From: Candidatus Altiarchaeota archaeon | Lineage (GTDB): Archaea > Altiarchaeota > Altiarchaeia > IMC4 > SCGC-AAA252-I15 | Assembly (NCBI GenBank): GCA_043800255.1 | Contig: JAZDNF010000008.1 | Coordinates: forward strand, 32,001-96,000 | Length of the DNA stretch: 64,000 nt | Reading direction: 5' to 3' | In this document: one piece after another, positions 3,024 to 58,777 of the stretch | How the letters are laid out: the number at the start of each line of letters is the position of its first letter | Numbering within the stretch: position 1 is the first letter of the stretch | Notes under the pieces: generated by a model | Told to the model about the DNA's origin: nothing | What the model saw: only the letters and a program-made list of their open reading frames with translations | The model's database searches: none | Made by a program: the position numbers and the translations under genes

Positions 3024-3150
3024 CGCCGAGGTTTGCGCAAGCCTATCCGGCTTGCTAACCTCTGCGTTCACCTTAACTATTGCCATTAAGAGCCACTAAG
3101 CGAACGAAGTGAGCGCATGTGGCTCATTTGATGAACCTTTGGAAAAGGTT
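3024..3150. repeat. Hairpin-module cluster 3' of tRNA-Ser, including 10-nt copy of tRNA 3' end
   Basis: CGCCGAGGTT at 3024-3033 equals 3151-3160; hairpins at 3090-3125 and 3133-3151. Confidence 0.7.
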
Positions 3151-3307
3151 CGCCGAGGTTGGGATTTGAACCCAAGTGGCCACAAGGACCACGGACTAGC
3201 TGCCACCTTGTCTTGTTTTTTCTTTTTCGTGCACGTTTTTCTTTTTTTCTAAAAAAGAAAAAGGTGCTAGCAGGCCCGCGCGTTAGACCATACTCCGCCA
3301 CCTCGGC
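3151..3307 (-). tRNA. tRNA-Ser(GCT) with 70-nt intron at 37/38 (3198-3267)
   Basis: GCCGAGG/CCTCGGC acceptor, long variable arm, GGTTCAAATCC T-arm, perfect BHB (CTGC/GCAG helix). Confidence 0.95.
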
Positions 3308-10173: not shown

Positions 10174-10436
10174 AAGTTTTTCCTAAAAGAAAAAGGCTTG
10201 TCGAGTGCTCAGCGCGAGAAGCTCTGCTTCTCGGCTCGCCAAAATCGCAGTGGCGATTTTGCGCGTAACCAGTCTGAGCCACAGGCCCTTGTTTATTCTT
10301 TAGTTATTATGGGCCATTAAGCGACCGAAAGGGAGCGCATATGGCTCAACCGAGACATCCGTCTCGGTGAGCACGAAGACGAATGTCTTCGTTGCTCCTT
10401 TGGCCAGCCTTTAAAAAGGCTGTGAGCCACAGGCCC
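10174..10436 (-). repeat. Two truncated tandem copies of tRNA-Ile 5' part with inserted hairpin modules
   Basis: 10200-10210 plus 10266-10292 identical to 10095-10132, split by a 55-nt insert; 10423-10436 is a 14-nt copy. Confidence 0.9.
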
Positions 10437-10482
10437 GTGAAAATTTGAGGTTATTTTTAGTGTTTTTAAGATAAAAAATAGT

Positions 10483-15301: not shown

Positions 15302-15455
15302 CTTTTGTCAAGAACCGCTGGTGTGGCGGAGGCAGATGCCTCCGACACGCGCCCGAGCAAGGCTCGGCCGCGTCAGAGACCGGCGGCATGAAATCAGAGG
15401 GGAAATAGTCTTGACAGAAGATTTCCGCCACCAGTCAATAGACTGGTGGAAATCT
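15302..15455. repeat. MITE-like nested inverted repeat with double-hairpin core
   Basis: 12-bp inverted repeats (11/12) at 15302-15313 and 15409-15420; internal hairpins CGGAGGC/GCCTCCG and CCGAGC/GCTCGG; further hairpin ~15419-15455. Confidence 0.55.
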
Positions 15456-41426: not shown

Positions 41427-41470
41427 GCCCCGGTAGTGTCAGCAGCCTTTTAAGAAAAGGCTGGCGAAAA
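41427..41470 (+). repeat. 13-nt copy of tRNA-Asp 5' end fused to CAGCCTTTT..AAAAGGCTG hairpin element
   Basis: GCCCCGGTAGTGT at 41427-41439 equals 41491-41503; element at 41443-41470. Confidence 0.8.
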
Positions 41471-41490
41471 GAGGATAGAACACTAAAATT

Positions 41491-41616
41491 GCCCCGGTAG
41501 TGTAGCGGACTATCATGTAAGCCTGTCGCAACCCTTTTCCGCCTACGGCGCAAAAGCGTTGACGGAAAAAAGATTGCAGTCAGCTTACGACTCGGGTTCG
41601 AATCCCGACCGGGGCG
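41491..41616 (+). tRNA. tRNA-Asp(GTC) with 53-nt intron at 37/38 (41529-41581)
   Basis: GCCCCGG/CCGGGGC acceptor, TAAGC/GCTTA stem, GGTTCGAATCC, BHB (CTGT/GCAG). Confidence 0.95.
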
Positions 41617-41911
41617 TCCAACCCGTAGACCCAATTTAGGGGCCAACAGAGCCCTGCTCTGTATATTTTTCTAGATTCTTCTTATCATAATTGATGGAAT
41701 TACGCGAGTTAGAATATCTATTTAATTCATATGGGAAGAATGAGACCCCAACTATAGCCTATCGGCTGGGGGAGTATTTCTATGACCATCCTGAGCGTTT
41801 TAAATATCTCCAGATAGCAATCGCTGGCCAGATAATGTTTTTGTATCGGATAACCCAGAAACCCGTATATCCGATACATTAGATATAAACCTGTAAGAAC
41901 TAACTAAAGCC

Positions 41912-58043: not shown

Positions 58044-58454
58044 TCACCTATCGTGAAAGATGCAGGATAATGCGTCAGATACGATTTTCCAGTGGTCGAA
58101 AGCCAGTTCCGGGAGCTTTTCCACGTCGAACATCCTGCACTCGGCAGCGTCATCGCCTCCGGCAGGCTCACCCGACAGCCTCTCGCAGAGGAACACTATG
58201 GAAACGCTGTGGCCTCTCGGGTCTCTGCCAGGGTCAGAGTATACGCCCAATAGCTCTCGAACCTTCACCTTAATGGAAGTTTCCTCATAGACTTCTCTGA
58301 CGACGGCATCCTCGACCCGTTCACCATATTCGACGAATCCGCCAGGAAGAGCCCACATGCCCTTAAACGGCTGGTTCCCCCTCCTGATGAGGAGTATCTT
58401 ATCGTCTTCGACGACCACACCGTCAACCATCAGACTCGGCTTCCTATCGTCCAT
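58044..58454 (-). CDS. NUDIX hydrolase (ADP-ribose pyrophosphatase-like)
   Basis: WALPGGFVEYGE...REVYEET, RDPRGH, LAFDH. Confidence 0.92.
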   Translation of the reverse strand: MDDRKPSLMVDGVVVEDDKILLIRRGNQPFKGMWALPGGFVEYGERVEDAVVREVYEETSIKVKVRELLGVYSDPGRDPRGHSVSIVFLCERLSGEPAGGDDAAECRMFDVEKLPELAFDHWKIVSDALSCIFHDR

Positions 58455-58492
58455 CCTACAGAAGTTAGAACAATTTTACTAGGTGCTGTTGA

Positions 58493-58701
58493 GGCGACTT
58501 CGTTGCGCTCAGCCCCATCGCAATACTCCTCTTTAGGGTCGTCGAGAGGGCGAAGCCCACGAAGACGGCCCCTTTTCGCCAGCCTCCCAATCGACCTTTG
58601 GTCGATGTTGGAGAGCTTGAAGCTCTCCGACTTTCGGGAAGCGAAGCTTCCCAAAATGGGCGCAAGTTGCCGAAGGCAACTTCGCGTTTGTTAAAAGGCT
58701 G
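58493..58701. repeat. Nested hairpin-element cluster 3' of tRNA-Val
   Basis: Outer element 58573-58585 + 58687-58701 split by 101-nt multi-hairpin insert; module 58493-58516 matches reverse complement of 9914-9938. Confidence 0.85.
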
Positions 58702-58703
58702 AG

Positions 58704-58777
58704 TGGGCCCAGCCGGATTCGAACCGGCGATCTTCGCCTCGTAAAGGCGACGTCATAACCAGCTAGACTATGGGCCC
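58704..58777 (-). tRNA. tRNA-Val(TAC), intronless
   Basis: GGGCCCA/TGGGCCC acceptor, TCGCC-TTTACGA-GGCGA, GGTTCGAATCC. Confidence 0.96.

Follow-up and report, generated by a model that had tools for sequence, protein, structure and literature searches.

The locus described here raises the question of how a small hairpin element that stands directly after a tRNA gene comes to hold a run of further hairpins. We analysed a stretch of 64,000 nt (the window) from the genome of a Candidatus Altiarchaeota archaeon (assembly GCA_043800255.1; 17 contigs, 1.75 Mb, 93% complete). The window corresponds to positions 32001-96000 of contig C11 (JAZDNF010000008.1), and coordinates given without a contig name are those of the window. 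The element, named T-hairpin here, follows the intron-less gene for tRNA-Val(TAC) (58703-58777, minus strand, by ARAGORN; Rfam RF00005 at 58704-58777, 71 bits). A first-pass annotation of the sequence had taken the split element as direct evidence that hairpin modules insert into it. This was right in kind and is partly supported, but it was overstated as "direct evidence", and it missed the nesting of the insert (50 + 51 nt), its wider context and the age of the outer module. On balance, the best explanation of the stretch seems to us to be a conserved structured cassette of Altiarchaeota-like archaea whose loops are populated by hairpin modules.

When the 13 nt at 58573-58585 and the 15 nt at 58687-58701 were joined, a slice comparison reproduced the identity reported in the first-pass annotation: 27 of the 28 positions agree with the reverse complement of 41443-41470, and the sole mismatch, G versus C, lies inside the 3-nt loop. 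The latter site (plus strand) is an empty T-hairpin of the CAGCC/GCGAAAA subtype with its tail, a 9-bp hairpin with a 3-nt loop. It is the one exact occurrence of the uninterrupted 28-mer in the 1.75-Mb assembly. Allowing up to five mismatches, only two further matches were found, one of which follows tRNA-Cys directly and has a stem with compensatory changes. A chance likeness of the two sites was rejected on the rarity of the 28-mer together with the family evidence given below. The intervening 101 nt (58586-58686) are indeed a run of short perfect hairpins, defined here as stems of at least 7 bp with loops of 3-5 nt; there are four of them, at 58590-58606 (7 bp), 58610-58628 (9 bp), 58636-58652 (7 bp) and 58664-58682 (8 bp). 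The outer junctions of the insert, read from the sequence, carry a direct repeat of 0 nt, in agreement with the reported lack of a target duplication. The distance from the tRNA was also correct, as the stem arm starts at 58701, 2 nt past the tRNA-Val discriminator at 58704.

Read on its sense (minus) strand, the tRNA-Val copy begins with the 5' half of the T-hairpin (58687-58701), which comprises the arm CAGCC (58697-58701), the T-run, the loop and most of the A-run, and which pairs with 58580-58585 in predicted folds. It is followed by the first hairpin of an outer double-hairpin module (58656-58686), in which the 8-bp stem at 58664-58682 continues through a 1-nt bulge into a 3-bp GC clamp. 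Next comes an inner, nested pair of hairpins of 51 nt (58605-58655, the boundary being ambiguous by 3 nt), made up of the stems at 58610-58628 and 58636-58652. The second hairpin of the outer module occupies 58586-58604; the last 2 nt of its 7-bp stem (58590-58606) are common with the repeat at the inner junction. The 3' stem arm (58580-58585, sense AGGCTG), recognised from the sequence and the predicted folds, is followed by a conserved tail (58573-58579, sense GCGAAAA) and, by reading, a second stem-loop (58536-58572). This is a divergent version of the stem-loop found after the tail in other copies, a family that was defined with nhmmer. RNA folding of the sense strand gave one closing stem enclosing four hairpins (-68 kcal/mol, z = -6.31, none of 200 shuffles equal; second fold -66.4 kcal/mol, z = -6.69). 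With Rfam, only tRNA was found over the window at the gathering score, and 58536-58701 matched no family even at E up to 10. A bulge-helix-bulge intron was considered and rejected, since the closing helix in the predicted folds abuts the 101-nt insert on both sides and no bulge-helix-bulge was seen by eye; its place speaks against it as well, the insert lying in the 3' trailer at least 2 nt past the discriminator of an intact tRNA-Val. We are highly confident of this anatomy and of the nesting.

The outer module was traced further. BLAST of the region against the genome, followed by reading, showed that this double bulged hairpin of 50 nt is also present in two other T-hairpins, in both cases with identical module stems. 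One is in the second cassette after the signal recognition particle (SRP) RNA (C15:22263-22340, CAGCC stem) and the other is directly after tRNA-Cys (C7:325250, AAACT/AGTTT stem); an empty counterpart of the AAACT/AGTTT stem was found after tRNA-Leu(TAA). In an alignment of the three module copies, 0 of 44 non-loop columns differed, compared with 4 of 6 loop columns (Fisher p = 6.5e-5). The insertion point is identical in all three, just before the last A of the A-run, and the host stem is CAGCC in two of them and AAACT in one. Because a T-hairpin whose closing stem differs holds this module at the identical position, the module appears to have been copied between elements, and an identical module in such a host would be hard to explain in another way. 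In the tRNA-Val copy, the linker of the 50-nt module is split by the further 51 nt (58605-58655), which are flanked by a 3-nt repeat, plus-strand ATG at 58605-58607 and 58656-58658. The two paralogues have the uninterrupted junction without the inner 51 nt, with flanks that are identical except in the hairpin loops. It seems likely that the tRNA-Val copy grew in two steps. A fourth filled T-hairpin, after tRNA-Leu(TAG), contains an unrelated double hairpin on the T-run side.

The element after tRNA-Val is a member of a phylum-wide family. Its design is a 5-nt arm, 3-5 T, a short loop, 3-5 A and the complementary arm, then a tail (ATCAAA or GCGAAAA; general form xxxAAAA) and often, next to it, a further stem-loop whose loop is conserved. 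Covariation is seen in the stems: CAGCC, CAACC, GAACC, AAACC, GAAAC, CAAAC and AAACT were each found with the exact complement. A duplex protein-binding palindrome was rejected on this ground, because two arms that covary argue for a single strand that folds, and not for a protein site on duplex DNA. The tail orientation is fixed, and so is a C.C mismatch, both of them strand-specific features; C.C is the commonest mismatch among stems with a single one (12 of 24), and 8 of these are, by reading, at one fixed position in distinct long T-hairpins.

In a listing of the 170 nt after every tRNA, a T-hairpin was found within 0-3 nt of most tRNAs. We counted 21 short-type copies in the genome, of which a pattern scan gave 17 and reading by eye the other 4. 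Thirteen of them lie directly against an annotated stable RNA at its 3' end, the RNAs being 11 tRNAs, the SRP RNA (C15:21916-22190) and the 5S rRNA (C16:63889-64004). Three follow partial copies of a tRNA 5' end, the 41443 copy among them, and five have no annotated neighbour. With an nhmmer profile built from eight hairpin-tail-stem-loop units, nine full copies and about a dozen partial ones were obtained. Two more empty copies stand on the minus strand of the window: one of the GAACC/ATCAAA subtype with its tail directly after tRNA-Ser(GCT) (3126-3151), and one of the CAGCC type behind 14 nt duplicated from the tRNA-Ser(GGA) 5' end (10398-10422). Rfam was also run at 15 other loci, where SRP RNA, 5S rRNA, tRNAs and a weak C/D-box match (sR2, E = 0.0017, below the cut-off) were found; two weak tmRNA matches were taken as noise. 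At C7:156230-156286, after tRNA-Cys, two T-hairpins stand tail to tail with the tails overlapping on opposite strands, which suggests that the element is able to face both directions.

A longer form of the T-hairpin was found inside tRNA genes. With introns allowed, ARAGORN called 36 tRNA genes, 30 of them intron-bearing; three calls spanning more than 260 nt were dropped from the later counts, leaving 33. Nearly all tRNA genes carry introns, of 23-113 nt, and most of the genes are missed by default ARAGORN and at the Rfam gathering score. By eye, 18 of 27 ARAGORN introns open with a long T-hairpin. Its xAACC arm is followed by a pyrimidine strand, a loop and a purine strand; then come a CGTTSACG-like motif and, last, a second, mirror-image purine strand. 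The first half of the CGTTSACG-like motif pairs back to the arm around the fixed C.C mismatch, and this outer xAAC/GTTx pairing accounts for part of what appears to be a separate mini-hairpin. A triple helix of the pyrimidine, purine and mirror purine strands was considered as no more than an idea and set aside. In one intron examined by hand, pairing of the arm with a complementary GGTT close to the intron's 3' boundary could supply the splicing motif's inner helix. At least six different tRNAs have in common a second intron type, whose opening hairpin and subsequent motif are near-identical. Extra GC hairpins are found in the loop or junction of 4 of the 18 intron long T-hairpins: a GC hairpin sits inside the loop in a tRNA-Ser and in tRNA-Asp(GTC) of the window, and a double hairpin follows the purine strand in the introns of tRNA-Gly(GCC) and tRNA-Thr(GGT). 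The latter double hairpin also occurs upstream of several other tRNAs. The tRNA-Asp(GTC) gene (41490-41620, plus strand, missed by default ARAGORN) has a 53-nt intron (41530-41582), which opens with this T-hairpin.

Partial copies of tRNA genes were found beside the same elements. Among the 33 tRNA calls, 8 have their own 5' end duplicated exactly (at least 11 nt) 64-174 nt upstream, and 4 have their own 3' end duplicated 117-166 nt downstream. The copies are 11-23 nt long and abut T-hairpins or hairpin modules; in one 5' copy of a tRNA-Ser, a double hairpin sits in the D-loop. The copy at 41428-41441 (plus strand), directly upstream of the empty T-hairpin at 41443, consists of 1 nt of leader and positions 1-13 of tRNA-Asp. 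Other sites are C8:132921, C11:42268 and 42437 (window 10268 and 10437), C11:96906, and sites on C5 and C12. For tRNA-Val(TAC) in this genome, no partial copy of a tRNA end was found.

We then looked at the modules across the genome. Of 531 perfect hairpins, 117 are within 300 nt of the 36 listed RNA genes (1.5% of the genome; p = 8e-96). The extension by a 1-nt bulge and a 3-bp clamp is present in 38 of these 117, as against 13 of the 414 elsewhere. The modules are mostly paired with a short GC linker between the hairpins. They form many families with unrelated stems and one shape (447 distinct inner 7-mers, 32 of them recurring), and within a family the stems are identical and the loops differ. 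They were found in T-hairpin loops, in the loop of the second stem-loop, in the gap between tail and stem-loop, in introns and in the D-loop of the partial tRNA-Ser copy; those in the second stem-loop are after tRNA-Val(GAC), in the second cassette after the SRP RNA and after the 5S rRNA. The host helix was kept in every case read. A separate palindrome family, whose 9-bp arms enclose a loop of 3-4 nt (CCACCGGTC or CCACCAGTC type), shows no association with tRNA genes. It occurs at 15327-15450 (C11:47327-47450) and at about 16 other sites (for example C2:4136 and 4208, C16:9652 and 9714, C1:24216 and 24277), often paired about 60-70 nt apart and sometimes with a CGGAGGC palindrome, and one of its sites was miscalled by ARAGORN as a tRNA with a 165-nt intron.

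The family is widespread in the phylum. The exact pattern of the AACC/ATCAAA subtype was present in 21 of 61 phylum genomes, in six of nine families, and the reversed control had 0 matches in all 61. The CAGCC/GCGAAA subtype, to which the tRNA-Val copy belongs, had 80 matches in 19 of the 61 (reversed control, 2 matches). On contig C31 of a genome of another family (G037), a tRNA 3' end is followed by the identical two-base spacer and CAGCC arm. In viral contigs of IMG/VR, 12 and 2 contigs matched two T-hairpin patterns, the first of these numbers being near chance for A/T-rich DNA by a rough estimate. One viral-classed contig (L147, 12.6 kb, GC 0.60) has a CAGCC-type hairpin with a GCGAAA tail at 3061-3084 and at 10440-10463; ahead of each copy stands a run of three GC hairpins, within a repeat some 140 nt long. 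In other genomes, many T-hairpins punctuate tandem units of about 120-130 nt, for example four copies with a 129-nt period. Such loci are G019:C236:5625-6037, three loci in G037 (L125, L132 and L134) and, in the genome studied here, C13:11691-11838; one tandem unit in this genome gives the weak sR2 C/D-box match mentioned above. These units may be arrays of small RNA genes.

As we propose it, the cassette would consist of the T-hairpin, the xxxAAAA tail and the second stem-loop, and would occupy parts of stable-RNA precursors that are discarded, namely the 3' trailers of tRNA, 5S and SRP RNA; its longer form would start most tRNA introns. A second family, that of the GC-rich hairpin modules, would fill the loops and junctions of the cassette and leave its closing helices undisturbed. 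A module is usually paired, with perfect stems of 7-9 bp and loops of 3-5 nt, often with the 1-nt bulge and 3-bp clamp. At tRNA-Val, a 50-nt double-hairpin module would have entered the A-run side in a first, old step that is common to other genera, and a 51-nt hairpin pair would have entered the linker of this module in a second, lineage-specific step.

It is tentatively possible that the modules are copied at the DNA level, through break repair or gene conversion at the tips of extruded hairpins. The short T-run and A-run sequence common to the cassettes would then serve as the repair homology, no dedicated transposase would be needed, and breakage at the tips would also scramble the loops. 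In the 93%-complete genome, no match to PF01797 (Y1/RAYT, the REP-associated tyrosine transposases) or to PF00078 (reverse transcriptase) was found, and PF00589 gave a single tyrosine recombinase (C7:191315-191800), far from any copy; the search covered these three families, the DDE families lying outside it. As to function, the cassette may act as a folded RNA of the sense strand in 3'-end formation or precursor handling, a role that we hold to be quite possible though somewhat short of probable.

The direction and age of the changes were considered from the numbers of filled and empty copies. In the CAGCC subtype, reading of the rows from the 61 genomes gave about 77 empty and 4 filled copies (40-70 nt between the arms), after one of five pattern matches had been excluded as an empty hairpin behind a chance CAGCC in a tRNA. 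With 71-101 nt between the arms, the pattern of CAGCC and AGGCTGGCGAAA had 11 matches in 5 genomes, by reading mostly spans of two neighbouring elements. The tRNA-Val copy, with 111 nt between the arms, is beyond these ranges, and the counts do not include four-hairpin forms elsewhere. Filled CAGCC-type copies with the identical insertion point were found in three other genera (G003, G013 and G042). In G003 the filled copy stands upstream of tRNA-Thr; in G013 it stands upstream of tRNA-Val(TAC), preceded by 20 nt duplicated from the 5' end of that gene. The first hairpin of these copies can be recognised as that of the tRNA-Val copy with compensatory changes, and compensatory double changes were seen at 9 of 25 consensus pairs across five sequences. 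All six forms that were folded keep the closing stem, the five filled ones with z = -5.15 to -6.69 and the short one with z = -1.86. As the two-hairpin form exists in three other genera with compensatory changes, the outer module appears to be an old, maintained state and not a recent hop; the inner 51 nt alone look lineage-specific.

An uninterrupted allele was also sought in related strains. Seven DNA sequencing runs from groundwater metagenomes, and no RNA run, were listed as containing related sequence, and the contigs of four of them from one study (X1-X4) were compared. Over about 170-190 nt, the element differed at 0-3 positions, as against 17 of 442 in the coding flank: X1 records 1-3 had 0-1 differences over the parts covered, and X2 record 8 had 3 differences and one changed loop. 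The X3 and X4 contigs reached the element only in part or missed it. In X1 record 1, the 131-nt spacer at 58442-58572, including the second stem-loop, is replaced by 72 unrelated letters, and the T-hairpin with its four hairpins is nearly unchanged beside it.

Several results weigh against the proposed explanation. None of the sister-strain contigs had an empty allele at the tRNA-Val site, those of X1 and X2 being all of the four-hairpin form, and none had a joint skipping the insert. Exact-pattern scans of metagenome contigs gave 0 matches for the tRNA-Val 3' end with the stem arm and 0 for the first module hairpin with its linker. Among the 31 relatives searched, none is of the same genus. 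The polarity rests on paralogues and counts, not on alleles, so that "direct evidence" was too strong a term for this locus, and for the outer module, the form being old (four genera), insertion and an ancient stable variant cannot be separated. BLAST found no other copy of the inner 51-nt pair in the genome, that is, no donor was identified, and the right-hand homology usable for conversion into an AAACT-type host is only 2 nt. G.U was found once and A.C five times among the 24 single-mismatch stems; a purely RNA-level constraint would predict an excess of G.U and is not favoured by this. In addition, the T-hairpin abuts the 3' end of an ARAGORN tRNA in only 4 of 26 cases sampled in other genomes; either T-hairpins are not tied to stable-RNA 3' ends everywhere, or annotation has missed many small RNA genes. 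What stands of the original claim that modules insert into the element is that the short and long forms are one element, that modules lie in its loop, that two-hairpin intermediates exist at two loci and that the inner 51 nt form a clean filled/empty pair; what does not stand is insertion of the outer module as a recent event.

We also considered an explanation without any mobility. In that case, the closing stem and the two bulged hairpins would be an old functional structured RNA, the short T-hairpins a separate class or deletion derivatives, and the inner pair a product of local duplication and divergence. The filled form in four genera at one fixed insertion point, the compensatory changes at 9 of 25 pairs and the low divergence in sister strains compared with the coding flank are all consistent with this, as is a short palindromic core that the two inner hairpins, by eye, have in common. 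However, the module is identical at 44 of 44 non-loop bases in hosts whose stems differ at most positions, and vertical descent would need several compensatory changes in the host and none in the module. The predominance of empty over filled copies, spread over 19 genomes, also argues against it, and unrelated modules interrupt other loops of the cassettes (the stem-loop of tRNA-Val(GAC), the second SRP cassette, intron T-hairpins). Nor does 58536-58701 match a known RNA family in Rfam. We consider an origin without mobility unlikely.

Alternatively, the element could be a signal in the DNA itself: either a terminator working in both directions, each strand having a T-run, or a TATA-like promoter in the case of tRNA-Asp, with the hairpins as neutral filler that disables the tRNA-Val copy. 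The position of 13 of the 21 copies directly at the 3' end of an annotated stable-RNA gene would fit, the T-run, A-run and tail are conserved in sequence across the phylum, and the tRNA-Asp hairpin lies, by eye, about where other tRNAs have an A/T-rich box. Reporter assays in Haloferax have shown termination by T-stretches, by hairpins lying upstream of 3' ends and by an AGATC motif downstream, according to the part of that study considered here (PMC7237163). But the compensatory covariation of the arms points to a folded single strand and not to a duplex site, and the long T-hairpins that open 18 of 27 introns lie inside genes that require read-through. Filled forms show conservation, not decay, both among sister strains and between genera, and many loops contain CC or GG, which makes poor TATA boxes. 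We regard such a signal as a rather improbable account of the locus; if the element were only a terminator with inert filler, the result would be a useful annotation, but an ordinary one.

Spread at the RNA level was also considered. Here, the splicing endonuclease and a ligase would move modules or cassettes into the loops of precursors, from which they would return to DNA, and this would be the source of the tRNA introns. Introns and trailers are built from the same blocks, modules are found only in loops of folded precursors, and the outer junction has no target duplication. Partial tRNA copies stop within the D arm or begin within the T arm, both of them single-stranded landmarks of tRNA, and for the double-hairpin elements of Allomyces an RNA route was proposed on the ground that they lack flanking duplications, in the part of that work considered here (PMC2800124). 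On the other hand, the genome has no match to PF00078, the junctions of the 101-nt insert have no bulge-helix-bulge and the closing helix directly abuts the insert. There is no excess of G.U, and the partial tRNA copies include 1-3 nt of upstream DNA that is absent from the mature RNA. Altogether, this route appears quite improbable.

Still less probable, in our view, are non-autonomous DNA transposons moved by an enzyme encoded elsewhere, such as elements like the repetitive extragenic palindromes (REP) and bacterial interspersed mosaic elements (BIME) with a RAYT, IS200/IS605-like elements or MITEs (miniature inverted-repeat transposable elements). Insertion into a single-stranded hairpin loop without target duplication fits HUH chemistry. 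The hairpins bound by HUH transposases are imperfect palindromes with a bulged base, and the modules resemble them. In the part of a survey considered here, Ca. Altiarchaeum hamiconexum has the highest MITE density of the archaea, 146 per Mb (PMC11602168). Against this, PF01797 had no match, the one tyrosine recombinase is far from any copy, many stem sequences of one shape are a poor fit with sequence-specific recognition by a transposase, and no conserved head tetranucleotide was seen by eye. The T-hairpin arms can be read as the 9-nt inverted ends of a MITE, but they covary, which fits a folded hairpin better, and a target duplication of fixed length is not present: it is 0 nt at the outer junction and 3 nt at the inner one, and the flanks of T-hairpins have no repeat of constant length. 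As to a remnant of an integrase attachment site, tRNA-end repeats do occur at other tRNAs; the intervening 50-170 nt hold no gene, and the sole PF00589 match is elsewhere.

We return to the conserved cassette with its loop modules. A bolder form of this explanation, which we put forward as improbable, is that cassettes and modules are one self-propagating system living in the discarded parts of precursors, and the route by which tRNA introns arrived in the phylum. A cassette would land where a tRNA gene has a single-stranded landmark, whether at the 5' end or D arm, in the anticodon loop, or at the T arm or 3' end, and would survive only if it could be excised as RNA, in an intron or a trailer, or if a partial duplication kept the gene intact. 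The tRNA fragments (5' at 8 and 3' at 4 of 33 genes) would be such survivors, and the nested tRNA-Val copy would capture one moment in a continuing growth by accretion of hairpins.

Closest in kind among known systems are the double-hairpin and repetitive hairpin elements of organelles (Allomyces, sponge and fungal mitochondria), a likeness and not a homology. In the part of the Allomyces work considered here, these elements are described as dispersed, sometimes multiple and without flanking duplications, with a mechanism unknown to its authors (PMC2800124). As in that description, the units found here are short and GC-rich, fold into single, double or multiple hairpins and are scattered over spacers, introns and variable regions of RNA, often tandem or multiple; they also lack flanking duplications, and mobility is deduced from filled and empty sites, here between paralogues only (PMC2800124). 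Unlike them, the modules described here are on an archaeal chromosome, lie inside a second conserved cassette that is tied to stable-RNA genes, and have a recurrent bulge-plus-clamp shape and identical stems with scrambled loops. Similarly, REP/BIME elements with their RAYT are imperfect extragenic palindromes, clustered, in many copies and sometimes nested. Here, in contrast, no RAYT/Y1 gene was found with PF01797, no conserved GTAG or CGTC head was seen, many unrelated stems have one shape, and the elements lie in the flanks and introns of stable-RNA genes, whereas REP/BIME elements lie at mRNA 3' ends.

In Thermoproteales, Sugahara (2008) and Fujishima (2010) reportedly described the transposition of introns between tRNA genes. 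The sharing of tRNA introns in that order is cited in section 2.5 of an Asgard preprint, the part of it considered here (10.64898/2026.10.13.758758). As there, one intron family is present across different tRNA genes, at least six introns having the same opening hairpin and motif. The present case differs in that it is in another phylum, the unit is also found outside genes as a 3' trailer of tRNA, 5S and SRP RNA and accepts nested modules, and the 101-nt insert has no bulge-helix-bulge junctions. In Caldiarchaeum subterraneum, a tRNA fragment and an integrated element are upstream of an intact tRNA gene, as described in the relevant part of that report (PMC3293823). The order of 5' tRNA fragment, foreign sequence and intact gene is the same here at 8 of 33 tRNA calls, but the Caldiarchaeum element is given there as 1.8 kb with a recombinase, compared with hairpin cassettes of 50-170 nt without a gene (PMC3293823). 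The terminators of Haloferax volcanii, in the part of that study considered here, are alike in having a hairpin and a T-run at the gene 3' end with a short downstream motif (here ATCAAA or GCGAAAA); they differ in that our T-run is inside the hairpin and our element is also found in introns (PMC7237163).

In the literature searched, we found no description of these cassettes or modules in Altiarchaeota, although the MITE tables of the survey mentioned above, seen in part, may list some of them (PMC11602168). Dispersed hairpin repeats are here inside a conserved stable-RNA cassette which is itself apparently undescribed. The T-hairpin is a phylum-wide, strongly conserved motif at the ends of stable-RNA genes that is absent from Rfam and from annotation pipelines, and it may explain why Altiarchaeum scores as the most MITE-dense archaeon in automated surveys, as far as the part considered here reports them (PMC11602168). 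That loops are scrambled while the stems next to them stay identical points to some unusual process of mutation or repair at the tips of hairpins. Finally, the finding bears on the open question of how archaeal tRNA introns arrive and spread. One small genome combines building blocks common to introns and to the regions flanking tRNA, 5S and SRP RNA genes, paralogues in the empty, two-hairpin and four-hairpin states, and partial tRNA duplications beside the blocks; because these occur together, comparative genomics should be able to follow the process in this clade, for which many metagenome-assembled genomes exist.

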